Below are positions 9,282 to 40,397 of a stretch of 64,000 nucleotides of DNA, one piece after another. Every line of letters begins with the position of its first letter. Within the stretch, counting starts at the first letter, position 1. The notes beneath the pieces were generated by a model. That model did no database searches and had not been told where the DNA came from. It saw only the letters and a list, made by a program, of their open reading frames with translations. This DNA is from Sulfurimonas sp. RIFOXYB12_FULL_35_9 (GTDB taxonomy: Bacteria > Campylobacterota > Campylobacteria > Campylobacterales > Sulfurimonadaceae). Where the stretch lies: positions 904-64,903 of the forward strand of contig NZ_MICC01000076.1 in assembly GCF_001829715.1 (NCBI RefSeq), read 5' to 3'. Made by a program: the position numbers and the translations under genes.

Positions 9282-9301
9282 GTATACAGAAATTTCGTGT
9301 T

Positions 9302-9325: not shown

Positions 9326-9333
9326 ATTTATGT

Positions 9334-10722
9334 TTAATGGTGGGCTGTTATTGCGTTATCTATCCTTGAAATTGTCTCGTCTTTACCGATTATCGCCATA
9401 ACGCTGTCAAGCCCCGGACCACTCATTTTTCCTAAAAGTGCAAGGCGAAGAGGCTGACCGATTTTACCGAAGCCGATACCCATCTCATCAACCACCTCTT
9501 GCATCAGGTGATGATAATCGCTCGGAAGATGAAGCTCGCTACATGTAGCTATTTTTGCTGCAAAAGCATTTAAAACCTCTACCGCATCGCTCTTAAACGA
9601 TTTGGCAACGGCTTTTTCATCATAAGAAACAGGAGCAACAATAATCTCATTTACGAGCAAAGCCATCTCTTTAATAGTCTTTGCGCGATCTTTTAGAGCA
9701 TCAAGCAAAATCTCTTTTTTATCATGTGAAGCAAGCAACAAACCATGCTCCTCAAGCAAATCTGCAAGCTTGCCGTTTGGCATATTTTTGATATAGTGAG
9801 CGTTAAGCCAGTCAAGTTTTTCCGTGTTGTAGATAGATGCGGATTTGTTGATATCTTTAGGATTGAAAAGTTCTTGCATCTCATCCATAGAGAAAATCTC
9901 TTGATCTCCGTGACTCCAGCCAAGACGCACCAAAAAGTTCAAAAGTGCCTCAGGCGTGTAACCCATCTCTTTATATGCCATAACATCCGTTGCACCGTCA
10001 CGTTTAGAGAGTTTTTTGCCCTCGTGGTTATGAATCATCGGCACATGGTAAAACTTCGGCACATCAAATCCGAGTGCTTCATAAACTACAATCTGCTTAG
10101 GCGTGTTTGAGAGGTGATCATCACCGCGGATAACCTCGGTAACACCCATCAAATGGTCATCAATCGCTACGACAAAGTTGTAAGTCGGCGAACCGTCGCC
10201 TCTGGCAATAACAAAATCATCCAAAATATCTTCAGCTTTAAAAGTTATATCTCCTTTAACGCCGTCACGGACGATGATTTCTCCGCTAAGAGGTGCTTTT
10301 ATGCGGATAACCGGTTCTATACCCTCAGGCACAGTACCCTCAAAATCACGATATTTGCCGTTATACTTTGTACGCTCTTTGTTTGCCATCTGAGTTTCTC
10401 TGAGGGCATCAAGCTCTTCTCTTGACATGTAGCACTTGTAAGCATTGCCGCTATCTAAAAGCTGTTTTATGTAAATTGCGTAAATGTCATCTCTTTGCGA
10501 CTGATAAGTTATCTCTCCGTCATGTTCCAAACCCAGCCAATGAAACGCTTTTACGATTGCCTCAGCTGCTTCTTGTGAGTTTCTCGCTTTATCGGTATCT
10601 TCGATGCGAAGAAGAAATTTACCGCCGTTTTTTCTAGCCCAGAGATAGGAAAAAAGGGCAGTTCTTAAACCGCCGATATGTAAATAGCCCGTAGGACTTG
10701 GAGCAAAACGAGTAACAACCAT
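9334..10722 (-). CDS. gltX: glutamyl-tRNA synthetase
   Basis: Class I motifs are present: HIGGLRTAL (HIGH) and KLSKRD (KMSKS). The length is 462 aa. Confidence 0.93.
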   Translation of the reverse strand: MVVTRFAPSPTGYLHIGGLRTALFSYLWARKNGGKFLLRIEDTDKARNSQEAAEAIVKAFHWLGLEHDGEITYQSQRDDIYAIYIKQLLDSGNAYKCYMSREELDALRETQMANKERTKYNGKYRDFEGTVPEGIEPVIRIKAPLSGEIIVRDGVKGDITFKAEDILDDFVIARGDGSPTYNFVVAIDDHLMGVTEVIRGDDHLSNTPKQIVVYEALGFDVPKFYHVPMIHNHEGKKLSKRDGATDVMAYKEMGYTPEALLNFLVRLGWSHGDQEIFSMDEMQELFNPKDINKSASIYNTEKLDWLNAHYIKNMPNGKLADLLEEHGLLLASHDKKEILLDALKDRAKTIKEMALLVNEIIVAPVSYDEKAVAKSFKSDAVEVLNAFAAKIATCSELHLPSDYHHLMQEVVDEMGIGFGKIGQPLRLALLGKMSGPGLDSVMAIIGKDETISRIDNAITAHH

Positions 10723-10805: not shown

Positions 10806-12488
10806 TCAGTTTTCCAGATAAAATCGCTCAAATATTTTTCTATTATCCAGAGGTTTTAAAAATATTTTATACTTAAATTTAATTTTACTCTTCTCCAACA
10901 GCTCTTTTTGCGCAGATGTTGCCAGAAAATAAAGCTCACCTCTCTCTACTATTTTTTCAAACTCCGGAAATCTTTTGTTAAGCAGTTTTACAAGCAAATA
11001 TCCGTTGTCGAATATGGCATTTGCAAAGCTTAAATCTACAATAACTCTTTTGTAACTATGTTTTTCAAGTTCATTTTTCAGTATTGAGACACTCTTAAAT
11101 ATCAATATTTCAAGCGGCGGCATGTCAAGTGTCAGCTTTTTCTTAAACATTTCAAGCGTCTCCAAATCTCTTGTTGCCAGAACTATTTTTTCTTTATCAT
11201 ATTTTTGAAATTTTTTTATCTCATTTCTATCGATTACACCTCTCTGATGCAATAAATTGTGAGTATTAATCATCTTAAACTTTAAATTGCTTTTTAAATA
11301 CCCTACGATTTTAGACGATTTTTTTGCATTTTGCCATGACAGCTCATTTGCTTTAAATACATAATAAGGAACTATTTGTTGCGAGATATACTTTATACAT
11401 GTGTTGATATGCTTTTCTACATCCTCCAATATATCCGAATCATCTTTTAAATAAACAAATTTATCAATTAAATTGGACTTTTGCAGTAAAGGTTTTAACT
11501 CTTCTTGAAATTCCTCAATCTCTTTAATATGATTTAAAATTGATAAAACTTCCATATTTTTATAGTTAGAATCTATTTCAAGAAATATATCCAGTAATTT
11601 GTCTAAATAAGGCGTAAAATCATCATGCAAAAGTTTTTGTTTATCTTTTGCCATATCTCTTACCTTTGTTAAAAGACGGTTAAGCGGCAAAATAAATGAA
11701 TATTTAAGATGCTCTTTTATCGGCATGCTGTTCGAGAATGCTTCTGCATTTAAGATAATTTCATGGAAGTTTTCACTCATGCCCAGTGCTTTATATTTTT
11801 CAGGATGACGCCATATATTATAAATTTTTTCCATAAGCAAACTATTTACTACTAGAGAATTATCTATGCTTTTTATATAGTTTTCTAAAACAATTTGACA
11901 CGTCATGTACAACTCATCTGCATCAATAGCATAAAAATGATCAAATTCACTGCGGATAAGAGTCTCTAATGCTTCTGTTTGAATATCGATTTTATCTTCA
12001 TCACAATAGGTTTGAACCCATGTTCTGATATATTTCATCTGTTTGGCATGATCTGATTTTATTTTTTTCTCATATTGAATTTTTCTTTCATGTTCTCTTT
12101 CTAAATTATTAAAAAAATCAGAAAAACTCTCGGCACTAAAAGGTTTGTAGATAACGCCTTTGATATTTTCACTGATTTTTTTTGATATGATTTTTGTATT
12201 TATGGGTGTGGTTATAAAAATTACATCCAGTGTTTTAATCTTTCCCGTATCTATAAGTATCTCTATAAGCTCATGTCCGTTAAGTTCTGGCATCATAATG
12301 TCAGAGATTAAAAGCGATATATTGGGGTATTTGCTAAGTATCTCAATAGCTTGCATGCCATCATAGGCGATGTAAATATAATCTTCATGAAAAAAATAGT
12401 TAGAGATTTTATTTGACAACAAAATTTTGGCTGTCAATTTTGTAATCATTTTTGAGTCATCAATTATAAGTACATTTGTCGGTGTCAT
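10806..12488 (-). CDS. orphan response regulator (REC domain) with large uncharacterised C-terminal region
   Basis: The N-terminus has the receiver pattern VLIIDDS ... LLISDIMMPELNGHELI ... KP. The remaining ~430 aa show no recognisable output motif. The last ~120 aa have a receiver-like alternation of secondary structure. Confidence 0.7.
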   Translation of the reverse strand: MTPTNVLIIDDSKMITKLTAKILLSNKISNYFFHEDYIYIAYDGMQAIEILSKYPNISLLISDIMMPELNGHELIEILIDTGKIKTLDVIFITTPINTKIISKKISENIKGVIYKPFSAESFSDFFNNLEREHERKIQYEKKIKSDHAKQMKYIRTWVQTYCDEDKIDIQTEALETLIRSEFDHFYAIDADELYMTCQIVLENYIKSIDNSLVVNSLLMEKIYNIWRHPEKYKALGMSENFHEIILNAEAFSNSMPIKEHLKYSFILPLNRLLTKVRDMAKDKQKLLHDDFTPYLDKLLDIFLEIDSNYKNMEVLSILNHIKEIEEFQEELKPLLQKSNLIDKFVYLKDDSDILEDVEKHINTCIKYISQQIVPYYVFKANELSWQNAKKSSKIVGYLKSNLKFKMINTHNLLHQRGVIDRNEIKKFQKYDKEKIVLATRDLETLEMFKKKLTLDMPPLEILIFKSVSILKNELEKHSYKRVIVDLSFANAIFDNGYLLVKLLNKRFPEFEKIVERGELYFLATSAQKELLEKSKIKFKYKIFLKPLDNRKIFERFYLEN

Positions 12489-12766
12489 TGTCGAATCAAC
12501 CCTTTTAGCTCTTTAAGGGTGTTTTTTCGCATTCAATTCCTTTTGTCAATTACTTAATAATTTGATTTTAAAATATTTTCCCTTGTATTCTAACAAAGAT
12601 AAAACAAATTTTGAGTTAATTTGTGCAGAGGTTTATAAATAAAATGAAATAATACTGTTATCTCGCCTCACATGCACAGCTATACACTCTAAGCAAATAG
12701 CTAAAATAGTGCAAGGTTAATAAATATATTGGTAAAATACCTCTCTTAAATTTTACAGGATTTTAA

Positions 12767-13603
12767 ATGTACAAAATATTACTACCTCTTCTTTTTAGCA
12801 CGTTTCTTTGTGGGGAACCTCTTAATGGGGTGAGTGTTATGGTCAAAGGAGATATTATTACTCTCCATGATATCAAAGAGGAGATGCGCATTTCAAATGT
12901 AAATGCAGCCGCTGCAACTGATATTTTGATAAGAAAAAAACTCGAAACTGCGGAGATAGATGAGAGAAAAATCAGCGTAAGTTCTGCGGAAGTTTACGAT
13001 GATATCAAAAAAATGGCGGCAGCAAATAAGATGAGTATTGACGAGCTTTATGAAGCAGTTAGAAACTCAAACGGCTTTAGTTCTACGGAGTTTAAAGAGA
13101 AAACAAAAGAGAAACTTATCTCTCAAAAGCTCTACTCCGCTATTGCTTACTCATCTATCGATATCCCAAAAGAGGACGAGATAAAAGAGTATTATGAACT
13201 TTATAAGAAAGATTTTTCACGCCCGAGTGCTTTTAAAGTTACAATATACGGCTCACAAAACAGGGACGCACTTGAAAAAAAGATAACTACTCCCATGTAC
13301 AACTCTGGCGAAATAAAAGTCAATGAGCAGATACTTCCATATGACAAAATTTCACCTGAATTGGCAAAAATACTTCAAAATACAAAAGATGGCAGTTTTA
13401 CTCCTATTATTAAAGAACCAAACGGCTCTTTTGTGAGTTTTTTCCTCCAAGAGACTCAAAATCGCAAAGAGTCAGACTATGAAAGCTCTAAAAATGAGAT
13501 AATAAATCTTATTATGGAGAAAAAGAGAGAACAGGTTTTAAGCGACTACTTTGCAAGACTTAAGGGAAATGCGGAGATTAAAACGATTCGAGAAGTCAAA
13601 TAG
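12767..13603 (+). CDS. SurA-like periplasmic chaperone / parvulin-like protein
   Basis: A signal peptide is followed by a SurA-N-like helical region and a degenerate parvulin-like C-terminus. The size and the position next to gltX resemble C. jejuni Cj1289. Confidence 0.6.
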   Translation: MYKILLPLLFSTFLCGEPLNGVSVMVKGDIITLHDIKEEMRISNVNAAAATDILIRKKLETAEIDERKISVSSAEVYDDIKKMAAANKMSIDELYEAVRNSNGFSSTEFKEKTKEKLISQKLYSAIAYSSIDIPKEDEIKEYYELYKKDFSRPSAFKVTIYGSQNRDALEKKITTPMYNSGEIKVNEQILPYDKISPELAKILQNTKDGSFTPIIKEPNGSFVSFFLQETQNRKESDYESSKNEIINLIMEKKREQVLSDYFARLKGNAEIKTIREVK

Positions 13604-29963: not shown

Positions 29964-30074
29964 TATTTGATTTTTTTTGATATAATTATCACATAAGCGT
30001 GGGGTGGATAATTTTATTATTTTATGGAATAAGAATATAATTTATGCCGGCTATATTAAAGAGAAAGGTTGTTG

Positions 30075-31190
30075 ATGTTCTTCAAAAAAAACAATAAGCT
30101 CATTGCCGATTTAGAGGCTAAAGAGAGGGAAATAGTAAATTTAAAAAATGAGCTTGATGGTGCAAATCTAAAAATCTTAGATTTAGAGAGAAAAATGAAC
30201 ATCAACAGTGATGAACATACTCTTAATGAACTCATTAAATCTCTGGTAAATGGTTTAACTGACTCTTGTTTCAGAGATTTATCGGGATTGCAAGTCGATT
30301 TAAGCAATAACCTAAACGAACTTCAAGATATTCATCAAAGAAGTGACCAAAGCAATGAAAATGCGAATAGTGCATTGGTTGATGTAAATACTCTATCCAA
30401 CACAATGATATCTTTGCTAGAGCACATAACAAACACTTATGATCAAGTAAATATATTAAATACAAATGTTGAAAACATCTCAAGCGTAATTAGTCTAATA
30501 AAAGATATCAGTGATCAGACAAACCTTTTAGCACTAAATGCGGCCATCGAAGCTGCCCGTGCAGGTGAGCACGGAAGAGGCTTTGCAGTTGTCGCAGATG
30601 AGGTGCGAAAACTTGCTGAGAGAACGCAAAAAGCGACGAGCGAAGTTGAGATAACGGTACAAGGTTTAAAGCAAAATGCTCAAGAGATACATGAACACTC
30701 AAAATCAATGGAAGATCTCTCATCGGACTCAAATAAACAGGTAAGCTCTCTTCATGAAAAAATGCTAGATCTGCTTGGCAGTTCCAACGTTATAGCCAAT
30801 GAAAATCAAAATATTACAAATGCTATATTTATGGCGCTTGTAAAACTTGATCATCTGCTATTTAAGTCAAATGGATACAAAGCCGTATTTAAAAATCAGG
30901 CTGATGCCCATTTTGCTTCAGATTCCGAGTGCCGTTTAGGTCAATGGTATAATAGCGGCATAGGAAAAGAGCATTTCAGCAAAACACCTAGCTACTCAAA
31001 ACTAAGCATACCACATAAAGAAGTTCATGACAGCATTAAAAAAGCTATAGATTGCGTAACAAAAGGTACATGTACGCAAGAGGCAAAAAATGTAATGACT
31101 TACTTCGTAAATGCAGAAAAAGCAAGCGGTGAAGTAACACAAATATTAAGCAGTATGCTTCAAGAAGAGAGAACTTCAAGACATAAATAA
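30075..31190 (+). CDS. soluble MCP with C-terminal CZB domain (TlpD-like paralog)
   Basis: The ATG at 30075 follows aaagagaaagg. The signalling hairpin has the same 44-aa block as the 26984 gene but with many synonymous DNA differences. The CZB motifs are DHLLFKS...CRLGQWY...HKEVHD. Confidence 0.85.
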
Positions 31191-31197
31191 CTCTAAG

Positions 31198-31213
31198 CTC
31201 CTCTGGAGTTTAG
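31198..31213. repeat. putative att core, left copy (element A)
   Basis: The 16-bp sequence ctcctctggagtttag lies 7 nt after the MCP stop codon and is identical to 35533-35548. Confidence 0.6.
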
Positions 31214-31245
31214 CCAAATGGTCTTGAATACCGTAATTTAGGGCT

Positions 31246-32346
31246 TTAAACTTGTTTTACGTTTTCAATTGTAACCGTATCGTCACAGTAAAGAGAAAAA
31301 TTAAACTCCAAATTTACTTTGTCACCATCTATTACACTCGCATAATATTCTAGTGTTGTACTGGCTTTATTGTGACCGAGTAAACCTGCTAATTCATTTA
31401 TACTCACTATCTTACCTTGAAGCATTAAGGTTGCAAAAGTATGACGGGTCGCATACATTCTATATCTTGGAACACCGCTATCTTTTACAACCTTATTCCA
31501 ATATCGTTTTAACTTATCGGCATCGTCCATATCTCCAAAAATAAAGATATTATTTGTCTGTATCTTTTTGACTTCATCTAAAATCAATTTAGAGTAAGGA
31601 ACTTTTCTAACTGCATTAGCTGTTTTTCCGTTTCCTATAATGCCTTTACTTCTAGTTCTTTTAATATGAATATACCCATCATCTTTAAAATCACCGATTT
31701 GAAGTCCTAAAATTTCACCAACTCTCATTCCCGTATTGAATGCAATCTCTAAATATACTTTCATCACTCCAGAGGCTACACTAAGAAGCTTTCTTACCTC
31801 TTCTTTGGTGTAATATTCAATTTCCTCTTTAGCTTCTTTTTTGAGCTTTATATTAAGTGCTGGATTGAAATCTATTACTGCGTCGTCAACTGCTAATTCA
31901 AAAATCTCATTGATACAACTTTTATAAACTTTGAGTGATGATACTTTCATATCTAATGAAATCAAATATCTCTTAATGTCTAGTCTCGTTATGGTGTCAA
32001 TATTGCGACCGTTAAAAAACTGAATAACTCGTAAAAAATATTCTTTCTTTACTAAGTAACTCCGATTTTTATCTTTCTGCTCTAAAAATATACCACCGTA
32101 ATACTCGAAAGTTTTAGGTTTTTTTTTGTATATTTCACCTGTTGCAATTTTAATATCAAGAGCTGGTATAATCTTGTCTTTTACTATTTTTATGTTTTGA
32201 GGTGTGTCTTTTAACTTAGTGGACTTTTGTTTTCTCACACCATCAACATAATAATTAAGCCATATTACAGAGCCTCTTAAAAAATATGTTGTCATTCCTT
32301 TGTTACCTTTTTTAGTGGTAACAGCCTTACTATGAAACAAAATCAT
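31246..32346 (-). CDS. tyrosine recombinase / phage-type integrase (element A)
   Basis: The catalytic residues are GMRVGEILGL (Arg), ATRHTFATLML (HxxR), LLGHNK (His) and TLEYYA (Tyr). The start may instead be the internal ATG at 32295. Confidence 0.88.
   Translation of the reverse strand: MILFHSKAVTTKKGNKGMTTYFLRGSVIWLNYYVDGVRKQKSTKLKDTPQNIKIVKDKIIPALDIKIATGEIYKKKPKTFEYYGGIFLEQKDKNRSYLVKKEYFLRVIQFFNGRNIDTITRLDIKRYLISLDMKVSSLKVYKSCINEIFELAVDDAVIDFNPALNIKLKKEAKEEIEYYTKEEVRKLLSVASGVMKVYLEIAFNTGMRVGEILGLQIGDFKDDGYIHIKRTRSKGIIGNGKTANAVRKVPYSKLILDEVKKIQTNNIFIFGDMDDADKLKRYWNKVVKDSGVPRYRMYATRHTFATLMLQGKIVSINELAGLLGHNKASTTLEYYASVIDGDKVNLEFNFSLYCDDTVTIENVKQV
31270..31295. promoter_or_regulatory. putative arm-type site, left (element A)
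   Basis: The sequence tgtaaccgtatcgtcacagtaaagag matches 35443-35468 at 23 of 26 positions in the same orientation. Confidence 0.45.
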
Positions 32347-32352
32347 ACCTTT

Positions 32353-32562
32353 TTATATTAAAAATTTATCTAAGTCAATTTCATCAGAAATTGAATTGAT
32401 AGGCTTAATGCTATTATTGAACTCTTCAACATCAATATAAATTCTCTTATATCCATTTATTTTATGAGCTGCAAGGTCTTTATTTTTAATCATGGTTCTA
32501 AGATATGAACTATCTATGCCCATATCTTCGGCTACCTTTTGGATAGTTTGAAATCTACTCAT
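32353..32562 (-). CDS. excisionase-family / AlpA-MerR-like HTH DNA-binding protein
   Basis: The 69-aa protein has the pattern TIQKVAEDMGIDSSYLRTMIKNKDLAAHKINGYKRIYI. It lies directly upstream of the integrase. Confidence 0.65.
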   Translation of the reverse strand: MSRFQTIQKVAEDMGIDSSYLRTMIKNKDLAAHKINGYKRIYIDVEEFNNSIKPINSISDEIDLDKFLI

Positions 32563-32563
32563 T

Positions 32564-33589
32564 TTAGGCTACCAATCTGCCAGCGATATTAACAGTAAAA
32601 TTTTCTTGTCTCAAATAGAGCAATTCTTTATCGTCCCAAATTTCCATAATTTTGTCATTATCAATATTTGAAAGTATTTTAAGACTGTTGCCTTTTCGTA
32701 CTTGCGTAAGACCATAGAGAGAAAAGCGGTGATTTAACATTCTGTAAAGATACATAGGAGCAGTTGACCTACTTCCACAAAATCTGTTTATGCGGTGCTT
32801 GATATACCAAGCATTGAGATATTCATCTTTTGTTGTAATCTCTTTTTTTGACATAGGAAGTGTTTTATTTATATATTTCATTATGTAGCTCGTTGCACTT
32901 CTGATATTTTTTTCAAACTTGTTCGACTTTTGATTAAACAAGTGGTAGAAAGCTTTTTCAACTCGTTCGATGCGTTCTTTTGGAATAAATAGAAGTATAT
33001 GCGTGTGCGGTGTACCGTCTTTGTGTGGCTCATTCACACGATAATACATGCGTTGCATTTTTGTAAGCTCTTTTAATGAGCGGTCTTGTCGTAATTTAGC
33101 CAACATCTTTGTTAATATTTTTACTGACTCTTTAGGCTCTACACCATTATATTTAGGGTTTCTGATTAACTTACCGTCTCTAGTAGCTTTCATTATGTGA
33201 AATTCACTAGGCAGAGTAAGAGTCAAAAATACGGGAGTTAAATTTGCATTCGTTGCCTCACGCTCTAACGTATTAACACGATTTTGGATTTCACCGTAAT
33301 ATCTGTGTGGGCTATGATTTGATGAAACAATACAATCTTTTAAACTGAATTGTTGACCCGTAGAGTTATCTTGTATATAGCTATAATCTAAAAAGATACT
33401 TTGAGCTTTTATCTTTGCTTTTGTCATAGCTAAGTCATCGTTAGTCAGCCCGTATATTCTCGAGATGTCCACAACTTTTTTATAATTAGTCAAGAGGGCT
33501 TTCGCCTCCTCTTTTTTTGTTCGTCCCTCACAAATAAAGGAGGAGGCAGTCGCCCATTTTTCTAACTTCATAAAATTACTCATTATCAT
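32564..33589 (-). CDS. HUH rolling-circle replication initiator (superfamily-I Rep, two-Tyr type)
   Basis: Motif 1 is FLTLTLPSEFH. Motif 2 (HUH) is GTPHTHILLF. Motif 3 is SATSYIMKYINKT, with two Tyr residues spaced as in phiX174 gpA YVAKYVNK. Confidence 0.7.
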   Translation of the reverse strand: MIMSNFMKLEKWATASSFICEGRTKKEEAKALLTNYKKVVDISRIYGLTNDDLAMTKAKIKAQSIFLDYSYIQDNSTGQQFSLKDCIVSSNHSPHRYYGEIQNRVNTLEREATNANLTPVFLTLTLPSEFHIMKATRDGKLIRNPKYNGVEPKESVKILTKMLAKLRQDRSLKELTKMQRMYYRVNEPHKDGTPHTHILLFIPKERIERVEKAFYHLFNQKSNKFEKNIRSATSYIMKYINKTLPMSKKEITTKDEYLNAWYIKHRINRFCGSRSTAPMYLYRMLNHRFSLYGLTQVRKGNSLKILSNIDNDKIMEIWDDKELLYLRQENFTVNIAGRLVA

Positions 33590-33767
33590 CTAATGGAATA
33601 TAATTAAATGAGCCTTTGAGGCAATCTAGCATTACATTGTAATCCGTGAGGTGCAACGAGCCAAAAGCATTTAAACCTAATAATAATCTATGAAATTCAT
33701 CTAGTTTTCTATGCACCGTAGAGCAGTCAATTTCTGTTTTTTTAATATCTTTTTGTGTATCATTCAT
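33576..33767 (-). CDS. hypothetical protein (element A)
   Basis: The 63-aa ORF overlaps the Rep start by 14 nt on the same strand. Confidence 0.35.
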   Translation of the reverse strand: MNDTQKDIKKTEIDCSTVHRKLDEFHRLLLGLNAFGSLHLTDYNVMLDCLKGSFNYIPLDDNE

Positions 33768-33913
33768 CGTTTCTTTCCTTCTAGGCTTGGAACACGGTAG
33801 GGAGTTTTTATCTTGCAGGATGGACTCTCTATGCGTTCTTATTGTTTAAGACTTCAAATAAAACCACTATTAGTGCAAATAGTATGTGTTCATACTCTAT
33901 CATCTAACTTTTT

Positions 33914-34183
33914 TTAAGACACGTAAAAACTTACCGGCGATTTAGAAATAAAACTGCATTGAACGCTTACCTCTTTACCTATTTGAGCTTCATACTGTTT
34001 CACTTGCTCGTCTGGTATGCTGACATCTTGCATATCATGTTTAACAGAGCCGTTAGAGAGTTTTGTTTCAACCAATAGCTGTAATTTATGTTTACCAGTA
34101 CTTACAACCTCGCCCGTCTCTTTATCTTTAAAGTCAGGGTTTTTATACAATGACATTAACTTGCCGTGAATTGATATTTTCAT
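33914..34183 (-). CDS. hypothetical small beta-rich protein (possible OB-fold/ssDNA-binding)
   Basis: The protein is 89 aa with a predicted all-beta pattern. It is translationally coupled to the upstream ORF by a 4-nt overlap. Confidence 0.4.
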   Translation of the reverse strand: MKISIHGKLMSLYKNPDFKDKETGEVVSTGKHKLQLLVETKLSNGSVKHDMQDVSIPDEQVKQYEAQIGKEVSVQCSFISKSPVSFYVS

Positions 34184-34737
34184 TTTTCATCCTTCATATT
34201 AAGATTAAATTTTTCGAGAACAATATCATTATATTTTCCTTGAACAGCATTAAACTCGTCTTTTTTATCCATATTTCTAGCTATTCTACGAATGCATGCA
34301 GTTGCAGAATCCATAAGATTTAAAGCATCAAATTTATACGAAAAATCCATTCCTATATAAACATGATTTGTTTCTTTAAACTCATTTATCGCTAGTGATA
34401 ACTCTAAATAAATCTTCATAAGCTTTTCAAAATCATCTTCTGAAACAGTTTTGGAAAACATTGGATTACTATCGGATATTGGATTTGGCAAGAATATATC
34501 TTCAGAATTAAGAATATATTTTAAATCAGATAATAATTCCTGAACTTTTGGAACGGATGAAAGATAAGACTCAACTAAACTAACTTCCATTAATGAAATA
34601 ATCATGGATGTAACGGTTACATCATCTTTCTTGCATTGATGTTCAAATTCAGCTTTTAAGAGATTTGGGATTTGTAAATTAAATCCAACTTTTTTGTTTT
34701 CGGCACCTTGTGCTTTTTGTAGAGCTTGTTTGTACAT
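34180..34737 (-). CDS. hypothetical protein with N-terminal ribbon-helix-helix-like segment
   Basis: The segment KKVGFNLQIPNLLKAEFEHQCKKDDVTVTSMIISLME has a beta-alpha-alpha pattern. The gene is first in the leftward operon and lies behind GTACAT repeats. Confidence 0.4.
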   Translation of the reverse strand: MYKQALQKAQGAENKKVGFNLQIPNLLKAEFEHQCKKDDVTVTSMIISLMEVSLVESYLSSVPKVQELLSDLKYILNSEDIFLPNPISDSNPMFSKTVSEDDFEKLMKIYLELSLAINEFKETNHVYIGMDFSYKFDALNLMDSATACIRRIARNMDKKDEFNAVQGKYNDIVLEKFNLNMKDEK

Positions 34738-34946
34738 GTGTACTCCTTATATTATACGTACATTAAATATGTACATTAAGGAATTGTATATTTTTTTAGA
34801 GTGAATGTCAAGCTTTAGAAAACTAACGCCTCGATTAGTTGTCATATATTACAACTTTTAAGCTCGTTGTTATCCCTATCGTTCGTTCCTCTCTATGACG
34901 GGAGTTTATTTTTATAAATTGTGTATAATAGTTAGAAAGGAGTACT

Positions 34947-35420
34947 ATGAATTTATCAACCATCCCATCGGATAACTTATATAAGTTTATGTCTATTTTT
35001 GGTTTAGTTTTGATTGTGTCGTGTATGACTGTTTATATGTTAATGCATGATTCGTGGACTGAACAAAAATATAAACTAGAACTAAAAATAGAAGAAATGA
35101 ATGTAAAAACGAAGCACCAGGGTGATAGTATTGAATTATTTGATATTGACTCGTGCAAAGCTAATCCTAAAGATTGTCATGACAATTTTAAAAAAATAGA
35201 AAAAACTCAAAGAGAACAGGAGATTGATAATAGTCAAATTATTGTTCTAAATAAATATCTTAATGAAAGATTAAAAGAAATCACCAGTTATTCTTATGCT
35301 CTCTCTTTTTTAACTTTGTTTGGATTTTTGATATCTACAGCAGGATTCATTCTATGGTATTATAAATTGCAAATCTATCAAGATGCACTGATTATTAAAG
35401 AATATAAGAAACAAATATAA
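34947..35420 (+). CDS. two-TM membrane protein with central coiled coil (hypothetical, element A)
   Basis: The TM segments lie at about residues 14-34 and 117-139. The central segment between them is charged. This is the only + strand gene in the element. Confidence 0.45.
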   Translation: MNLSTIPSDNLYKFMSIFGLVLIVSCMTVYMLMHDSWTEQKYKLELKIEEMNVKTKHQGDSIELFDIDSCKANPKDCHDNFKKIEKTQREQEIDNSQIIVLNKYLNERLKEITSYSYALSFLTLFGFLISTAGFILWYYKLQIYQDALIIKEYKKQI

Positions 35421-35442
35421 CATAATTAGATGTAGATAAAAA

Positions 35443-35468
35443 TGTAACCGTAGTGTCACAGTAAACAG
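35443..35468. promoter_or_regulatory. putative arm-type site, right (element A)
   Basis: The sequence tgtaaccgtagtgtcacagtaaacag matches 31270-31295 at 23 of 26 positions. Confidence 0.45.
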
Positions 35469-35527
35469 CTAAATTCATAGTAAAACTGTTACATTACACC
35501 CCTAAAAGCCCTTGTTTGTGGGGTTTT

Positions 35528-35974
35528 TCAAACTCCTCTGGAGTTTAGACCTTTTGTTACTGCCTCGTTTATCTCTTTTTTATATTCAGGATTTAGCCTT
35601 CCAAGTTCTCTATCAAAGTAAATTATTATGTCTTTATTTGTATGTTTGTGTCTGCATATCGTAAAAAGCAAATCTGCATAAATATCAAAATCAGGATGAG
35701 GTCGCATCCCAAGTTTTTTGTTTATAACTCCGTAATATTTTGTAATCAATTGAACGGCTTCCAATAGTTCGGCGGCATCTGATTTTTTATTTTTTATTAC
35801 ATGTACCAAAGATTTAAAATCAGGCGTTGTTGAAGTGTTACTCTCATATTTTTCTATAGATGGTTTTTTTTTATTTGCATTATCTTTACTAGGTTCTAAA
35901 AATAGAAAAAACATTAAAACTGCTAAGATTACAACCAATCCCATTATAGATTTAATGATTAATTCTGCTTCCAT
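35528..35974 (-). CDS. membrane-anchored hypothetical protein (probable integration target of element A)
   Basis: I preferred the ATG at 35974 over the TTG at 36022. The N-terminal TM helix is IMGLVVILAVLMFFLFL and the C-terminal domain is soluble. The 3' end contains the 16-bp repeat. Confidence 0.5.
   Translation of the reverse strand: MEAELIIKSIMGLVVILAVLMFFLFLEPSKDNANKKKPSIEKYESNTSTTPDFKSLVHVIKNKKSDAAELLEAVQLITKYYGVINKKLGMRPHPDFDIYADLLFTICRHKHTNKDIIIYFDRELGRLNPEYKKEINEAVTKGLNSRGV
35533..35548. repeat. putative att core, right copy (element A)
   Basis: The sequence is identical to 31198-31213. It overlaps the last codons (LNSRGV*) of the ORF at 35528..35974. Confidence 0.6.
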
Positions 35975-36062
35975 TACGCTACTTTTTTTATAGATTATAT
36001 CACACTCAATAAGGCTTACCAAGTAAAAGTTATAAATTTAAAAAATAAATTAAATGGCTAGT

Positions 36063-36083
36063 ATAGTTTAATGTGGTGGACAG
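36063..36083. repeat. att core, distal copy (partial tRNA-Ser 3' end)
   Basis: The sequence is identical to 40309-40329. It diverges from the tRNA immediately afterwards. Confidence 0.8.
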
Positions 36084-36142
36084 TGAGGGATTTCAAGCTT
36101 AGACGCTCAGAAACTCCAGAAATAAGGGTTTCTAGCTGTTTG

Positions 36143-36176
36143 TCGGATAGCGAAAGTATCATAGTTTCTAGCCTTA
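36143..36176. promoter_or_regulatory. pair of arm-type repeats (element B, distal arm)
   Basis: AGTATCATAGT occurs at 36145 and 36166, 21 bp apart. The stretch aaagtatcatagttt is identical to 40226-40240. Confidence 0.55.
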
Positions 36177-36231
36177 GTATCATAGTAAAATTACGCTGAA
36201 TTTTACAAGAATTAAGCAAACAATAAAAATA

Positions 36232-36837
36232 CTATGCAGAAATTCGATTTAAGTTCAATTCAATTTCATTTACAATTTTACTTAATTCTTCTTTGCTGAT
36301 ATCATTTTGCACTTTTTTTTCTGTACCGTTAGAGTGATTTCTTATTCTCTCCAGTTCTCTTCTTTCGTCTTCTTCTTTCTTTATCTGTCTACCCATTGCC
36401 GCAGAATAAAATACATTAAGCTTTAAAGATTTTCTATGTTTCATAATATCTTTCCATGAGCCTTTGCCGAACAAATAAGTGTTAAGTGTGTACACTCCAG
36501 TATTAACACGAATTAACACTTCATTATTAACAAGTTTCGTTAGATTATTATTGACAAAGCTTAAACTCTTATCAAGCTCTTTTGCTATTCTCTCTTTAAT
36601 AGCTTTGTTGATAATTATTTCTTGTTCATAGTTAACATATTTAAGCAATGCGTACATTAAATCGCTACTAATATCTAACTTATAAAAATAAGCGATATCT
36701 TCGATATATAGCTTAATATAACTGGGCTCTACTTCTGCTTTAAATTGTGCTATCTGTTCTCTTTCTACTGTTTCGCCTAACTCATTTATTGTTGTATTTG
36801 TTTCAAGATAAGCTAATGTTCTTTTCATTTTTTCCAT
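36232..36837 (-). CDS. RepL-like winged-helix replication/maintenance protein
   Basis: The region YIKLYIEDIAYFYKLD...LMYALLKYVNYEQEIIINKAIKERIAKELDKSLSFVNNNLTKLVNNEVLIRVNTGVYTLNTYLFGKGSW follows the RepL-type wHTH...G.Y.lN...fgKG pattern. Iterons lie upstream. Confidence 0.5.
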   Translation of the reverse strand: MEKMKRTLAYLETNTTINELGETVEREQIAQFKAEVEPSYIKLYIEDIAYFYKLDISSDLMYALLKYVNYEQEIIINKAIKERIAKELDKSLSFVNNNLTKLVNNEVLIRVNTGVYTLNTYLFGKGSWKDIMKHRKSLKLNVFYSAAMGRQIKKEEDERRELERIRNHSNGTEKKVQNDISKEELSKIVNEIELNLNRISA

Positions 36838-36956
36838 AATTTATTACTCCTGTTGTTGTGTAATGCGATTACTCGCTTTTAAGTAATAATGCTCTAATGA
36901 AAAAAAATCAAAGAAGTGTTAAAAAATGAGCAAAAATAGTAAAAAATAGTAAATCA

Positions 36957-37020
36957 TTACTCAAATAGAGGAAAAACATTCCTCAAACTGAGGAATGTAC
37001 TTACTCAAACTGAGGAATGT
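36957..37020. repeat. three iteron-like repeats at 22-bp spacing (putative origin/operator)
   Basis: CTCAAA(C/T)(T/A)GAGGAA units start at 36960, 36982 and 37004. The last two are identical over 17 bp. The stretch 36976-36998 also forms a perfect 10-bp-arm palindrome, acattcctca-aac-tgaggaatgt. A 2x10-bp A-rich tandem, aaaaatagta, lies at 36932-36951. Confidence 0.7.
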
Positions 37021-37108
37021 TTTTCAATTAAAAAAACCTTTATAAAGCCCTAAAAATAGGGTTAAAAAAGGTGTTAAAAAAAATACAATTCCCTCTATTA
37101 TATTTTAC

Positions 37109-37142
37109 GCGTGATTTATCACGCATTACCGCTTGCGGTAAT
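37109..37142. repeat. two adjacent GC-rich hairpins downstream of the recombinase-like gene
   Basis: The first is gcgtgat-tt-atcacgc at 37109-37124. The second is attaccgc-tt-gcggtaat at 37125-37142. Both are perfect and lie back to back. Confidence 0.6.
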
Positions 37143-37149
37143 CCATATA

Positions 37150-38061
37150 TTAATCAGCTTGAAAAGTCGTATAATGGTCTGTAATATCTAAACGACTATG
37201 CCCTAGCTCTAAGCTAGTTATCCCTTTCGCTTCGTCTTCGCTATGTCCGCCCTCTCTTAGCTCTTCCATACGTTCTTGAGCAAAGTTATATCTAAGCCCG
37301 TGCGTTCCGCTCCACTCTTGCCCTGTTGCTTCGACTGCCTCTTTTAACGCTTCTCTATAATCACTATAATTAGCGTTATAACCATTTTCTATCGCTTCGC
37401 TTACTCTTTGTATCAACTCGTCGCTCAAATGCGTTGTAGTGTAATCTATGCCGCCCTTACTATCATGCACGGTAAGCGTGTTATCTTCGTTTACGCTCCA
37501 CTTGCCGGAGTTTATAGCGTCGTCGGCTCTTAAACCTGCCTCATGTTGAAGCTCGGCACTCAAAGTGTAAGGAGTGTGTTGCATTTCGTCTTTGATTGCT
37601 TGTGCGTCTTCGTAAGCTCTGTTTATATGCTCAGAATGTAAGCTATAAGCCTCTTTTAGCTCTGACTTAATATCTTGTATAGCTTCTCTGCTTAAATCGC
37701 CTATACCGTCCTTTTGTAAGTTGTCAGCGATTTTGTTCATAGTAGACACATAAGTATTAAGAGAACCGCCGCTTATCTCTTGTGCTTTAGCTTCCAAAAA
37801 AGCTTTAGCACTATCTGCATTAATATTATTAGCGACTTTACCCTCGTAATTTTCATTGACAAAATTAACGAACTGCGTCGTAACACTTCGCATGTTTTGA
37901 ACTTCTTTTATGGAGTGGGCTTTATCGCTTACATTGTGTCCATTCGCACCTTTAATGCCACTACTCGCTCTCGCTTCCGATTTACTTTGTCCTATGCCGT
38001 TGGCATTTGACATAACTCTATTTATGATACTATTCGCACTCGCTCGTGAAGCATTAAACAT
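37150..38061 (-). CDS. divergent tyrosine-recombinase-fold protein (candidate relaxase or resolvase-type recombinase)
   Basis: The full R-K-HxxR-H-Y set is present in the right order: AGLRADDA, HDSKGG, THGLRYNFA, LGHSR and ITDHY. An N-terminal SAM-like segment reads AKAFLEAKAQEISGGSLNTYVSTMNKI. There is no arm-binding domain. Confidence 0.6.
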   Translation of the reverse strand: MFNASRASANSIINRVMSNANGIGQSKSEARASSGIKGANGHNVSDKAHSIKEVQNMRSVTTQFVNFVNENYEGKVANNINADSAKAFLEAKAQEISGGSLNTYVSTMNKIADNLQKDGIGDLSREAIQDIKSELKEAYSLHSEHINRAYEDAQAIKDEMQHTPYTLSAELQHEAGLRADDAINSGKWSVNEDNTLTVHDSKGGIDYTTTHLSDELIQRVSEAIENGYNANYSDYREALKEAVEATGQEWSGTHGLRYNFAQERMEELREGGHSEDEAKGITSLELGHSRLDITDHYTTFQAD

Positions 38062-38446
38062 TTAAAACCTCTAAAGCATTTCGTAATGTTTCTCTGCTTA
38101 CTTTTACTTTGAAATGCTCTTTAGCATAGTTGCTTAACTCTTGATATGACGCCCCACGATTTCTAAGCACTTGAAGCTGTGGCAGATAATCTTTATATGT
38201 TTTTATCTTGCTTTGTTGTTTAACTTTCTCTTCTCTCGAGAGTTCAATTTCAGAGAATTCTGAAAATACTTTTAAAGCTTTGTTGGGGCGGTCATTGTTT
38301 TTAGCAGCGTAACGATAAACCAATTCAAGCAATTGATCAAGAACGATATTCATATCATTAACATTAGCAGATAAAGATATTCTATCATTAAGATTTTTAA
38401 TGCCTAATCTTGCACTTGCTTCTAATTCTAAAAATTTTTTACTCAT
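38054..38446 (-). CDS. small C-terminal HTH protein (accessory DNA-binding partner)
   Basis: The 130-aa protein has a Hin/resolvase-like HTH, LRNRGASYQELSNYAKEHFKVKVSRETLRNAL. Its stop overlaps the next gene's start by 8 nt. Confidence 0.5.
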   Translation of the reverse strand: MSKKFLELEASARLGIKNLNDRISLSANVNDMNIVLDQLLELVYRYAAKNNDRPNKALKVFSEFSEIELSREEKVKQQSKIKTYKDYLPQLQVLRNRGASYQELSNYAKEHFKVKVSRETLRNALEVLNV

Positions 38447-38468
38447 TAATAGGTTCTCCTTTAGATTT

Positions 38469-38497
38469 ATCCTTTTATCGCATAGCGATAAAAGGAT
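38469..38497. promoter_or_regulatory. perfect 13-bp-arm palindrome upstream of the HTH/recombinase-like operon (oriT, operator or recombination site candidate)
   Basis: The sequence atccttttatcgc-ata-gcgataaaaggat lies 23 bp upstream of the start at 38446. Confidence 0.6.
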
Positions 38498-38728
38498 GAA
38501 TCTCCTAGAAGAAGATTAGAAAATATCTAACAGTTATTTAAAGGTAATTCAATAAATAAACAAGCTAAAAACACAGAAATGTACTCTGCTATAAAGATAA
38601 CTTTATAGAATTTTTTTAGCTTGGCACCCGTATGCGTTCAGACAGATTTCTTTTTATTGGAAGAATAACCGGGATAAATTTTTTCACAAAAAAACTTTCA
38701 AAAAAGAGGGTGCGAATATGCTTAAAGT

Positions 38729-38944
38729 TTAGCGGACTTTGTCGGCGACTTTGAGGTGCATTTGACTAAAAAAATTTGTAGTAGCTTGTATTGGTTTATT
38801 TTGTATAGTGATTGTCATTTTTGCACCGTTAATATCGTAGAGCGGATAAAGCCCCGACTCAAGGCTATGATAAGTTATATATACTTTTGCAAAAAAAATT
38901 GCAATAAATACAAAAATAGCAAAAAAGAGAAATGCAAACAACAA
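38729..38944 (-). CDS. possible small membrane protein
   Basis: The ORF starts with TTG and has a hydrophobic N-terminus, LFAFLFFAIFVFIAIFF. Support for coding is weak. Confidence 0.25.
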   Translation of the reverse strand: MLFAFLFFAIFVFIAIFFAKVYITYHSLESGLYPLYDINGAKMTITIQNKPIQATTNFFSQMHLKVADKVR

Positions 38945-39021
38945 AGAAAGTTCGTAAACATGGGAGTATTGCGTTAAGAAGCGTTAGCTTCTTGACGCAA
39001 GGTATTCTTGCAATGGGGTTG

Positions 39022-40197
39022 CTATTGTTGATAAGTAACGCTATTAACTATTTCTTGCTTTAAATTTATATTAAAGCCTTTTGCATACGTATCAATGGTT
39101 AACGCCTCGCCTTTGTGTTTTGAATGTCCGACGATCTCTTGAATTATTAATAATTTTTCAGGAAAATTATTAATACATTCAGCGATAAAATTCGCTCTGC
39201 AAGTATGTATAGTTTTTGTGTGTCCTTTCTCAATTACTCTATAAAGCTCTCTTAACATTTTTTTCTGCATAGCTGAACTTGACTTACCCGGGAATAGCGG
39301 AAAGTTTGTATGCTCAATAAGTCCTATAATACTCGTATGTATCGGAACTTTTCTCGTTGCGTTTGTTGATTTTCCAATTTTAACATTGAAATATTTAATG
39401 CCTTCTTCTTCTTTTATGTCTTCATTCGTTAATCTATGCACGTCGTCAATTCTCATTCCAGTATACATAAGAATTTTTAAAGTCGTTGCAACATTTTCTT
39501 CATAATCAAATTGTAAAATATTATTAACTTCTTGGTATGTGAAGTTTTCTTTAACAACCGCTTCTTCTTTCAAATTTTCAAGTGCTTTTACATTATTTTC
39601 TTTAATAAGTTTATAATTAATTGCAAATTCAATAAAAGAATTAATGTACATGAAATGATTATTGATAGTTTTATTCTTAATTTCAGCAGATTTTAAATAA
39701 TTTCTAAAAGCTTTAAAATCGTCAATAGTTATATCGTCAATCGCTTTTTCTTCAAAATATCTTTGAAGTTTTTTAAATGTACCTGCATACGCTTTATAAG
39801 TTGAGTGCTTTACTTTGTCTAGTTCTTTTTTTTCTTGAATAAATTTAGCTTCCAACACAAACCAGTTCAACGGCAAATGATTACGATTATTTGCAAATTC
39901 ATTTAAAGTTTCGTGTGCTTGTTTCATTTTTCGCATTTCATTTTCAATTTCTAAAACTTCTTTATGCGTTTTTAAAGCGTCAAGTCTTCGACGCTCAAAC
40001 TCTTCTTCTGTATCGTACTCAAAAATATATTCATAGTCGCCAAATTTTAATGTATGCAACAGCTCTTCCTTTGACATTATATTTAACAATTTCTTACGCT
40101 GTAAAGCTGTTTTAAGCTGTTGCGTTTGAAGTGATATTCTATATAATTTTTTATTAATCCTTTTACGATAGTAAAAAATATTATCAACTTTATACAA
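39022..40197 (-). CDS. tyrosine recombinase / integrase (element B)
   Basis: The catalytic residues are TGMRIDDVHRL (Arg), KSTNATRKVPIH (Lys), HTCRANFIAECI (HxxR), IVGHSK (His) and TIDTYAKG (Tyr). The gene lies 112 bp from the tRNA-Ser 3' end. Confidence 0.88.
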   Translation of the reverse strand: MYKVDNIFYYRKRINKKLYRISLQTQQLKTALQRKKLLNIMSKEELLHTLKFGDYEYIFEYDTEEEFERRRLDALKTHKEVLEIENEMRKMKQAHETLNEFANNRNHLPLNWFVLEAKFIQEKKELDKVKHSTYKAYAGTFKKLQRYFEEKAIDDITIDDFKAFRNYLKSAEIKNKTINNHFMYINSFIEFAINYKLIKENNVKALENLKEEAVVKENFTYQEVNNILQFDYEENVATTLKILMYTGMRIDDVHRLTNEDIKEEEGIKYFNVKIGKSTNATRKVPIHTSIIGLIEHTNFPLFPGKSSSAMQKKMLRELYRVIEKGHTKTIHTCRANFIAECINNFPEKLLIIQEIVGHSKHKGEALTIDTYAKGFNINLKQEIVNSVTYQQ

Positions 40198-40206
40198 ATT
40201 TTTTGC

Positions 40207-40240
40207 AGTATCATACTTTTTCGCAAAAGTATCATAGTTT
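40207..40240. promoter_or_regulatory. pair of arm-type repeats (element B, tRNA-proximal arm)
   Basis: AGTATCATACT lies at 40207 and AGTATCATAGT at 40228, 21 bp apart. They have the same orientation as the pair at 36145/36166. Confidence 0.55.
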
Positions 40241-40308
40241 GTCTTTATAGCTAATTTAAAATCAGTAGAAGCACCTATTTCACGGGGTTTTGAGGGGTTT
40301 TGTAAATG

Positions 40309-40329
40309 GTGGTGGACAGTGAGGGATTT
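40309..40329. repeat. att core, tRNA copy
   Basis: The 21 bp are identical to 36063-36083. They cover the CCA end, the acceptor 3' strand and part of the T stem. Confidence 0.8.
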
Positions 40330-40397
40330 GAACCCTCGGTAGGTTTCCCTACGCTACCTTTCCAAGGTAGTAGATTAAACCGCTCTCCCAACTGTCC
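40310..40397 (-). tRNA. tRNA-Ser (anticodon GGA), 88 nt with encoded CCA
   Basis: Folded by hand, the acceptor stem is GGACAGT/ACTGTCC. The anticodon stem is CTACC/GGTAG with loop TTGGAAA. The long variable arm is GTAGG-GAAA-CCTAC. The T arm is GAGGG-TTCAAAT-CCCTC, followed by A-CCA. Confidence 0.9.

Follow-up and report, generated by a model that had tools for sequence, protein, structure and literature searches.

The question raised by this locus is whether a segment bounded by two copies of a short sequence is ordinary chromosome or a mobile element and, if it is mobile, to what kind of element it belongs. The segment, here called Element A, occupies positions 31198-35548 (4,335 bp with one core copy counted) of a stretch of 64,000 nucleotides from Sulfurimonas sp. 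RIFOXYB12_FULL_35_9. The whole 64-kb stretch is referred to as the window, and positions are those of the window unless another locus is named; loci in other genomes and in metagenome contigs are identified by numbers (L001 and so on). We conclude that Element A is very probably a small, integrative and self-replicating mobile element, a relative of filamentous phages that lacks morphogenesis genes. Its integration module, made up of an integrase (Int) and a putative excisionase (Xis), and the family of its replication protein (Rep) are those of prophages that carry Zot and secretin genes, and no virion genes are present. It is this combination that points to a morphogenesis-less relative of the filamentous phages of Campylobacterota.

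Insertion into the end of a conserved Sulfurimonas gene

Two exact copies of the 16-mer CTCCTCTGGAGTTTAG, both on the + strand, begin at 31198 and 35533 of the window (Table 1), exactly where an earlier reading made from the letters alone (the sequence-only reading) had placed them. A third copy with two or fewer mismatches was not found in the window. A 16-mer repeat alone is no proof of insertion, as repeats of such length are expected by chance. First-order Markov simulations gave a mean of approximately 1.2 exact direct repeats of at least 16 nt, with one or more in 72% of runs, which agrees with the caution in the sequence-only reading that the expectation is near 1; 11 were observed in the window.

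The surroundings of the two copies are more informative. The left core copy starts 7 nt 3' of the stop codon of a gene for a chemoreceptor (methyl-accepting chemotaxis protein, MCP) with a CZB domain, and ends 32 nt ahead of the stop codon of an integrase gene (31246-31248). The right core copy forms the codons L-N-S-R-G and the first base of V in an open reading frame (ORF) on the - strand, 35528-36022. The product of this ORF ends LNSRGV*, and would end LNSRGA* if the frame continued through the left core copy. Both distances and both ORF ends had been given in the sequence-only reading, and they were recovered on measurement and translation.

The 164-aa ORF that ends in the right core, referred to as the target gene, is a true gene of the host and is kept in synteny. 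Homologues were found at 14 loci in species-representative genomes (12 labelled Sulfurimonas and 2 labelled to family level only), with 51-88% identity in the best aligned segment, and the gene order DUF520 - helix-turn-helix (HTH) - tRNA-Ser - target gene - radical SAM is conserved. The protein has no significant match in Pfam or NCBIfam. Its N-terminal segment is hydrophobic and, by reading, a transmembrane helix, and its C-terminus is conserved across loci as ...EYKKEINEA..KGLNSR(G/R)x*.

The closest of these loci, L001, is a 2,058-nt contig of a metagenome-assembled genome (MAG) from a related genome, and is free of the insert. Its alignment with the window consists of three collinear blocks, namely L001 1-281 with window 40589-40309 (98% identity), 258-825 with 36096-35530 (94%) and 805-2058 with 31215-29963 (91%), and in L001 the tRNA-Ser, the target gene and the MCP gene are contiguous. 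Homology passes from the attR flank to the attL flank inside the 16-mer; seen from the other side, it runs from the left flank through the attL core copy. The L001 ORF ends LNSRGA*, with the convergent chemoreceptor stop codon 2 nt beyond, and is thus an insert-free homologue of the kind that the sequence-only reading had proposed to look for. This arrangement matches what is predicted for an unoccupied site, and hence establishes site-specific insertion at the 16-mer. The claim that Element A is integrated into the 3' end of a gene is therefore supported.

In favour of the pair of 16-mers being a coincidence, and the genes between them ordinary chromosome, are the one or so exact 16-mer repeat expected per 64 kb in simulations and the 11 such pairs in the window. 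However, this reading has next to no probability and is already refuted by the empty-site comparison, as the breakpoints coincide exactly with the 16-mer. It also runs counter to the finding of independent elements that share this gene end and its flanking repeat, to the restriction of an arm motif (described below) to the two ends of the element, and to the drop in GC content across Element A (0.29-0.35, compared with roughly 0.35-0.45 over most of the remaining window).

The same gene end is occupied by related elements in at least four other Sulfurimonas genomes, holds a 780-bp remnant in one more, and is empty in approximately 10. The element in L015 is 4,646 bp long with the 17-mer TCTAAACTCCAGAGGAG at both ends, and its integrase is 95% identical to that of Element A. 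In L016, on a contig shared with L009, the element is 3,993 bp long with GGACTAAACTCACGAAG at both ends (integrase 79% and Rep 84% identical). L011 and L030 belong to one genome in which the element is split over two contigs, and in three metagenome contigs (L032, L036 and L062) the integrase gene adjoins the MCP flank. The 780-bp remnant, at L008 10451-11246, retains both cores, the P' arm, a conserved non-coding block and the last ~60 int codons and, judged by what is left, is an internal-deletion derivative that arose by decay in situ. The L016 element may be a partly disabled copy, since its integrase is shorter (L016 8001-9060, matching residues 1-341), the tandem sites of the P arm are missing, and the core lies ~25 nt past the integrase match.

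The core sequence tracks the version of the gene end found in the host, LNSRG or LNSRR, and L013 is an empty site that matches the second core type. The window, L015 and L011 have identical element-side codons, GTTTGA (V*). A comparison of the window with L015 gives 93% nucleotide identity for the element modules, against 69% (76% at the amino acid level) for the radical-SAM flank and 37% identity for the target protein. As the modules are far closer than the flanks, recent horizontal movement is indicated. Rep is only 30% identical between the same two elements, which indicates modular exchange of the replication module in the middle of the element.

Integration module and gene content

The features of Element A and its flanks are listed in Table 1. 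Six genes on the - strand form an operon in the order ribbon-helix-helix (RHH) protein, oligonucleotide-binding (OB)-fold protein, 63-aa protein, Rep, HTH protein and integrase, and a single gene is divergent.

Table 1. Positions of the genes, recombination sites and non-coding features of Element A and its immediate flanks
Feature	Position	Strand	Evidence or remarks
MCP gene, C-terminal CZB domain (left flank)	30069..31190	+	Pfam MCPsignal 6.9e-34, CZB 1.4e-13
attL core	31198..31213		Left 16-bp copy; with 3 further bases on the left, imperfect dyad AAgCTCC-TCT-GGAGTTT
Tyrosine integrase, 366 aa, N-terminal arm-binding domain	31246..32346	-	Pfam, PHROG
P-arm repeat copy, GTGACgataCGGTTACA (- strand)	31270..31295	-	Two units 11 nt apart; 56 nt from core; overlaps last int codons
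HTH protein, 69 aa, candidate excisionase/AlpA-like directionality factor	32353..32562	-	Sub-threshold matches
HUH rolling-circle Rep, 341 aa as called	32564..33589	-	Pfam
GC-rich hairpin, then AT-rich motif CTCTTGACTAATTATAAAAAAGTTGTGGACA	33466..33511	-	Candidate replication origin or rep promoter; inside annotated 5' part of rep
63-aa protein, conserved just upstream of rep in mini elements	33576..33767	-	48-90% identical in L015, L016, L019, L020, L038, L042
OB-fold protein, 89 aa, candidate single-stranded DNA-binding protein (SSB)	33914..34183	-	AlphaFold model
RHH (Arc-like) protein, 185 aa, first operon gene, candidate repressor	34180..34737	-	PHROG Arc-like repressor 5.6e-5, residues 5-54
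Tandem 13-mers TTAATGTACATAT and TTAATGTACGTAT (- strand), candidate operator	34754-34779	-	3' of promoter
Operon promoter, TTGACA-17-TACAAT	34811..34783	-	Best promoter-like site in region, 11/12 matches
Non-coding block, ~80 nt, TCCCGTCATAGAGAGGAACGAACGATAGGGATAACAACGAGC ... TCGAGGCGTTAG	34823..34903	-	Conserved
157-aa protein, two transmembrane segments by reading, accessory	34947..35420	+	Divergent; 94% identical copy in L015
P'-arm repeat copy, GTGACActaCGGTTACA (- strand)	35443..35468	-	64 nt from core; non-coding
attR core	35533..35548		Right 16-bp copy; with 3 further bases on the left, perfect dyad AAACTCC-TCT-GGAGTTT; supplies last codons of target gene
Target host gene, conserved Sulfurimonas protein, 148-164 aa	35528..36022	-	14 homologous loci

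The integrase is full length relative to its homologues. It matches Phage_integrase in Pfam (PF00589, 2.5e-15, 57 bits against a cut-off of 27.1) and a PHROG integrase family (4.4e-55), can be aligned to XerA and lambda Int, and has a marginal match to the arm-binding domain Arm-DNA-bind_2 (PF12167, 22.5 bits against a cut-off of 22). Reading of the sequence gives four candidate active-site residues, namely R in TGMRVGE, R in TRHT, H in LGHN and Y in LEYY. The dyad of the core would fit two inverted core-binding sites placed round a short overlap region.

The sequence-only reading had also described a 26-bp repeat in the same orientation inside the two cores, and its positions, its spacing from the cores and its 23/26 identity are correct; a repeat search extends it to 36 nt at 83% identity. 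The proposal that it is an arm-type repeat is supported, with a refinement. The repeat is conserved in relatives, some of which have another core, and it is not one 26-bp site, being composed of two tandem units of ~8 bp, (C/T)GGT(T/G)ACA, spaced 11 nt from start to start. With up to one mismatch, GTKACA-N4-GGTTACA occurs in the 64 kb only at 31270-31286 and 35443-35459, whereas 0.06 occurrences are expected. The tandem pair is found in the non-coding P' arm of L015, L016, L011, L038, L042 and L150, and most relatives, elements with a different core and target among them, have it close to the C-terminal end of the integrase. Conservation of the pair despite differing cores is what would be predicted for arm-type sites recognized by a conserved N-terminal domain, and the repeats are probably bound by that domain of the integrase. 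A 19-nt inverted pair (32318-32336 and 35474-35492, 89% complementarity) was also seen, in which TGTAACAGTTTTACTATGAA of the P' arm recurs reversed in the first int codons. The P'-arm copy is kept in L015, L016, L011, L038 and L042, and the pair may be a further integrase or regulator site.

In every relative, complete inovirus-like prophages among them, a small HTH gene directly precedes int, and its product in Element A may be the excisionase. The matches of this product, all below the curated cut-offs, are HTH_17 (PF12728, 21 bits against a cut-off of 27), the 'excise' family TIGR01764 (21.9 against 28.8) and a PHROG excisionase (1.7e-3). The Rep protein matches Phage_GPA (PF05840, 1.3e-24), REP_ORF2-G2P (PF23343, 2.4e-10) and Gemini_AL1 (2.2e-5), and is ~30% identical to gpA of the P2 type. 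Its HUH motif (PHTHILL) and Tyr motif (SYIMKYINK) align with those in the Rep of the geminivirus tomato yellow leaf curl virus (TYLCV). The hairpin and motif at 33466-33511 are shared with the complete prophages L072, L081, L135 and L139, and a stretch of 65-90 nt in this region is 84-91% identical across loci whose rep genes are ~70% identical. In complete inovirus-like prophages the homologous stretch lies directly upstream of rep; the true start of rep in Element A may therefore be the Met at ~33427, and the motif may be an origin or the rep promoter. The hairpin also scores as terminator-like on the opposite strand.

The 63-aa protein has no family match in Pfam, PHROG or NCBIfam. The 89-aa protein has 52 homologue clusters, of which all named sources are Campylobacterales apart from one labelled 'bacterium', and the mean column identity in an alignment of 23 of the 52 is 73%. 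The AlphaFold model (predicted local distance difference test score, pLDDT, 82.5) has beta1-3/alpha/beta4 topology, and its top 11 matches in the PDB, though weak, are all SSBs; the protein may coat single-stranded DNA. The ~80-nt block beyond the promoter is nearly invariant in all of the small elements without virion genes (mini elements), whatever their Rep type, and was not found in the complete inovirus-like loci tested. An RNA or hairpin role for this block was considered and rejected, as there was no covariation (0/16 predicted pairs) and no stability signal (z = -0.12), and Rfam returned nothing across the element.

The 157-aa protein, encoded on the opposite strand, is the only Element A protein read as membrane-spanning. 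It has no match in Pfam, NCBIfam or PADLOC and only a marginal one in PHROG (1.4e-3, a family of unknown function). A defence role for the accessory genes was rejected, since PADLOC gave no matches. Neither a Pfam scan nor a reading of the translations revealed genes for capsid, coat, assembly or transfer functions in Element A, and when translations of the intergenic gaps were read by eye, no short ORF on the - strand encoded a hydrophobic segment that would span the membrane.

These components suggest an ordinary cycle of integration and excision. The integrase, which is of the lambda type, would recombine attP of the circular element with attB, the last codons of the target gene, with crossover within the 16-bp segment of identity, where the 7-bp dyad is arranged about a 3-nt centre. 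Because the element supplies its own final codons and stop, the host protein stays intact except for the last residue (A to V). The integrase would be heterobivalent, with its N-terminal domain on the tandem arm sites that flank the core, and the small HTH protein would serve as the excision or directionality factor. Excision would yield the attP junction AAACTCCTCTGGAGTTTAGCC (...GGGGTTTTTCAAACTCCTCTGGAGTTTAGCCAAATGGTC...) and a repaired attB, ...CTCTAAGCTCCTCTGGAGTTTAGACCTTTTG..., and the excised circle would be replicated by the HUH Rep via a single-stranded intermediate, which the 89-aa OB-fold protein would coat. A single promoter, controlled by the RHH protein, would drive the operon.

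Insertion at a 3' end with a replacement end is known from phage 21 and e14, both in icd of Escherichia coli, and from many prophages that target tRNA genes. Element A resembles these lambda-type integrators in its arm-binding integrase, its short dyad core with arm sites on both sides, the HTH gene beside int and the restoration of the ORF by element codons. Unlike them, it has a lineage-specific target gene, is only 4.3 kb long, carries no virion genes and has one of its arm sites inside int. The mechanism of integration is thus ordinary and well understood, and it is the family of minimal relatives of filamentous phages that is, apparently, undescribed.

Kinship with filamentous phages and alternative explanations

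The link to filamentous phages is provided by complete prophages with related modules. L035, which adjoins the 3' end of rnpB, the gene for RNase P RNA, combines Zot, a secretin, a GPA/G2P Rep, a small HTH gene and an integrase 68% identical to that of Element A, and a Zot homologue, a secretin homologue or both were present in 8 further integrase relatives. A scan with a Zot alignment returned 77 loci, nearly all from Campylobacterota. In most of these, a Rep 27-42% identical to that of Element A lies a few kb downstream of Zot, so that the Element A Rep is typical of this inovirus lineage. A 1.67-kb rep module is common, at ~90% nucleotide identity, to two mini elements, L015 and L020, and a complete prophage, L139; the latter corresponds to the contig region also numbered L018 and comes from the MAG that contains L020. 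The MAG carrying L015 also holds a Zot locus, L077.

Sulfurimonas inoviruses with integration modules have been published, using pI as the marker gene, and the name 'Amplinoviridae' was proposed for the integrase-bearing filamentous phages of Sulfurimonas and other Campylobacterota; the word 'satellite' is not used in the text of that paper (PMC11531552). Such prophages (L017, L018, L021, L023 and L035) resemble Element A in having an integrase that is 61-73% identical, an HTH gene upstream of int, a Rep of the GPA/G2P-type HUH family and the arm-site sequence at the integrase C-terminus. Element A differs from them in its lack of pI/Zot, secretin and coat genes and in its att site, as the filamentous prophages with an identified att site are all at the rnpB 3' end. 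An autonomous inovirus was rejected as an identity for Element A because Zot and coat genes are missing.

RS1 and TLC-phi of Vibrio cholerae are satellite filamentous phages with proven helper dependence (PMC3545932, PMC6744903). Like Element A, they are a few kb long, encode a rolling-circle Rep and regulators and no morphogenesis proteins, and are kin to filamentous phages, which are co-resident in their case and are complete phages of the same host group in the case of Element A. However, RS1 and TLC-phi hijack the host XerCD to integrate at dif, whereas Element A has its own integrase, an Xis-like gene, arm sites and an attB at the end of a protein gene; the comparison is one of layout. 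PICMI elements of Vibrionaceae, of ~6 kb with a 17-bp direct repeat next to fis, have virulent tailed phages as helpers and are defined by co-localized int, alpA (PF05930 or PF12728) and primase genes (PMC10803314). They share with Element A a very small size, an int gene, an alpA/HTH_17-type gene, a replication gene, few unknown genes and no capsid genes. They differ in having a primase (DUF3987/DUF5906) instead of an HUH Rep, and in the phylum of the host. Membership of PICMI was rejected, as Element A has no primase, its PF12728 match is below the cut-off, and its flanks are the MCP gene and the 164-aa gene, not fis. The pSAM2-type elements of actinomycetes carry Int, Xis and a rolling-circle Rep, together with conjugative transfer genes, and target tRNA genes. 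Compared by layout only, Element A is like them in its Int-Xis-Rep arrangement and unlike them in transfer genes and target.

Several observations weigh against Element A being a mobile relative of filamentous phages. All copies of the element that were seen are integrated. An exact search for the element-side attP/attR junction found no instance in IMG/VR or in Joint Genome Institute (JGI) metagenome contigs, absence from assemblies being weak evidence, and the small contigs that contain relatives showed no terminal overlap and included no circular contig; where contig ends were read (L032, L038, L042, L149, L150, L154 and L156), they consisted of host flanks or an att site. Searches of the window with the L035 proteins (tblastn) returned no Zot or secretin homologue, and no Element A ORF has a Pfam match to Zot. 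The Element A Rep subtype (best identity 42%) and the OB-fold gene are in none of the complete filamentous prophages found, and were found only in mini elements. The non-coding sequence common to mini elements and complete prophages consists only of the arm sites and a short motif near rep. Zot loci were present in 2 of ~5 genomes with mini elements and 2 of ~11 with empty sites, counts that are anecdotal and uninformative. Some points concern single features: the first catalytic His of the integrase is replaced by Tyr, a substitution conserved in the family; the Xis assignment combines sub-threshold matches with gene position; the SSB matches of the 89-aa model are weak (best E 0.018, template-modelling score ~0.5); and the left arm copy lies in coding sequence, within the last int codons, so its conservation there is partly a coding constraint.

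The alternatives differ in how the element would move between cells. One of them sharpens the preferred explanation, by proposing that Element A excises and replicates alone and is packaged or secreted by a helper inovirus, like RS1 and TLC-phi. We consider this possible and put it forward tentatively. It would account for an element with no morphogenesis genes that has, nonetheless, an Int-Xis module and Rep family common to complete Zot/secretin prophages, and for the many independent copies of the minimal gene set at three att sites, a recurrence that indicates a stable design rather than random decay. The close match of the L015 and L020 rep modules to L139, which is co-resident with L020, and the presence of L077 in the MAG of L015 are also in its favour. 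However, no helper phage was found in the window, nor anywhere for the Element A Rep subtype. Short-word blastn of the non-coding parts returned arm sites only and so no packaging signal common with complete prophages, and the block conserved specifically in mini elements has no hairpin signal. No relative of Rep was found in IMG/VR, and integrase relatives there (57-63% identical) are only on viral contigs of 11.5-37 kb, matches which show only that the integrase family is shared. Nor is co-occurrence with Zot enriched. Because modules are shared with filamentous phages and the minimal design is stable, transfer between cells most likely depends on a helper phage of this kind that packages the element. 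A broader proposition is that the ~4-kb elements in Sulfurimonas, Sulfuricurvum and related Campylobacterales are an undescribed, widespread family of self-integrating filamentous-phage satellites, exported by a helper inovirus, which have been reduced to an Int-Xis module, an HUH Rep, an OB-fold SSB of their own and an RHH switch, swap replication modules with their helpers and retarget among the 3' ends of a lineage-specific conserved gene, rpsR and a tRNA gene, while the arm sites are kept with the integrase family. In this general form, we regard it as doubtful.

It is likewise rather unlikely that Element A is a non-viral integrative plasmid, a rolling-circle or mobilizable element spread by natural transformation or by conjugative mobilization with the HUH protein as relaxase. 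The Int-Xis-Rep(HUH) layout is shared with pSAM2-type elements, in L154 and L156 the replication module accompanies an unrelated integrase and lies at an apparent tRNA gene, and the integrase module is linked to non-phage cargo in L029 and to a gene for a Walker-type NTPase, read from its sequence, in L037. On the other hand, the closest Rep relatives found adjoin Zot, and PLSDB contained no DNA match, the only Rep matches there being a P2-type 'replication endonuclease' of ~30% identity; nor was there any sign of an oriT, a coupling protein or a copy present as a free plasmid. An immobile remnant, left after a complete filamentous prophage had lost its structural genes by deletion, is improbable. 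Decay does occur at this very site, as in L008 with 780 bp between its cores and in L016 with its shortened integrase and missing P-arm sites, and the integrase of L029 is frameshifted. Against this, the Element A ORFs are all intact and full length relative to homologues, the cores are identical, and both arm sites and the promoter are present. Moreover, the 93% identical copy in a distant host species implies recent transfer, and the minimal layout is found in many diverged copies under apparent purifying selection (the 89-aa protein, 52 clusters). Element A, as a small integrative and self-replicating element, may thus still be active.

Element A offers a clean comparative case, with exact attB, attL and attR, conserved arm sites, and a series of occupied, empty and decayed sites at one locus. 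It points to recurrent minimal integrative rolling-circle replicons in Campylobacterales, although the wider interest is modest. As mini elements lack the pI marker, current surveys of Sulfurimonas mobile elements that use pI would miss them. If they are satellites, filamentous-phage satellites would extend beyond Vibrio and to an integrase-based lifestyle. The integrase relatives (57-79% identical) at three targets, namely the target gene, rpsR and rnpB, have the same arm sites and form a natural series for the study of changes in core specificity in tyrosine integrases.

Element B and other relatives

A second element of ~4.2 kb, element B (36073-40332), lies 0.5 kb to the right of Element A in the tRNA-Ser gene. 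A 24-nt repeat that matches the 3' end of tRNA-Ser(GGA), with one mismatch, lies at its two ends (36073-36096 and 40309-40332), and it has an arm-like repeat (36155-36186 and 40207-40238). Its genes encode a RepL-like protein (36232-36837), a weak tyrosine-recombinase-like protein (37150-38061), a 130-aa protein and an integrase (39022-40197). Element B is also missing from L001, again with a clean breakpoint. We rejected the possibility that the target ORF is part of element B, or of a tandem array of A and B at tRNA-Ser, as there are only two copies of the tRNA 3'-end repeat and the L001 ORF lies between two independent empty sites.

Many elements with a 61-73% identical integrase, including complete Zot/secretin prophages, abut the 3' end of rnpB, where the flank is AAGCCGAGTTTTGTTTTGATAGCATTAATCTAC. 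The gene is at 6589-6927 (-) in L035 and 9126-9448 (-) in L017, and the same flank was seen in L018, L021, L025, L027, L033, L039 and L044. Of the integrase relatives examined at this site, those whose type could be told are complete prophages. Members of the integrase family also use a third target, the 3' end of rpsR, a gene that directly follows ssb; its product, bS18, was identified by eye from its ending, ...VTAPFENLR*. The loci at this site are L019 (1377-1640 and 1627/9132), L020 (3651/9132), L029 (2388/9118), L038, L042, L149 and L150, and the core is CGAAAA(T/C)CTTAGATAG or a species variant.

In two JGI metagenome contigs, L154 and L156, the module RHH - OB-fold - small ORF - Rep341 is combined with a different integrase beside what appears, by eye, to be a tRNA 3' end, which indicates that replication and integration modules reassort. 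L029 2388-9118 contains the Int-Xis module, with its frameshifted integrase, and non-replication cargo that includes a gene for a 589-aa protein with an ATPase-like N-terminus. Hence, the integration module serves other kinds of island too. A related element is found next to atpE in the complete genome of Sulfurimonas lithotrophica (L159, CP043617.1 1790695-1802964), at roughly 1.794-1.800 Mb. It encodes a NikA-like RHH protein, an OB-fold protein 56% identical to that of Element A, a 68-aa ORF, a GPA Rep, an 81-aa ORF and an integrase.

Elsewhere in the window, exact repeat pairs with a spacing of 60 nt are found at 56371/56431 and 56392/56452, and a patch of low GC content (0.29-0.31) is present at 11001-13000.

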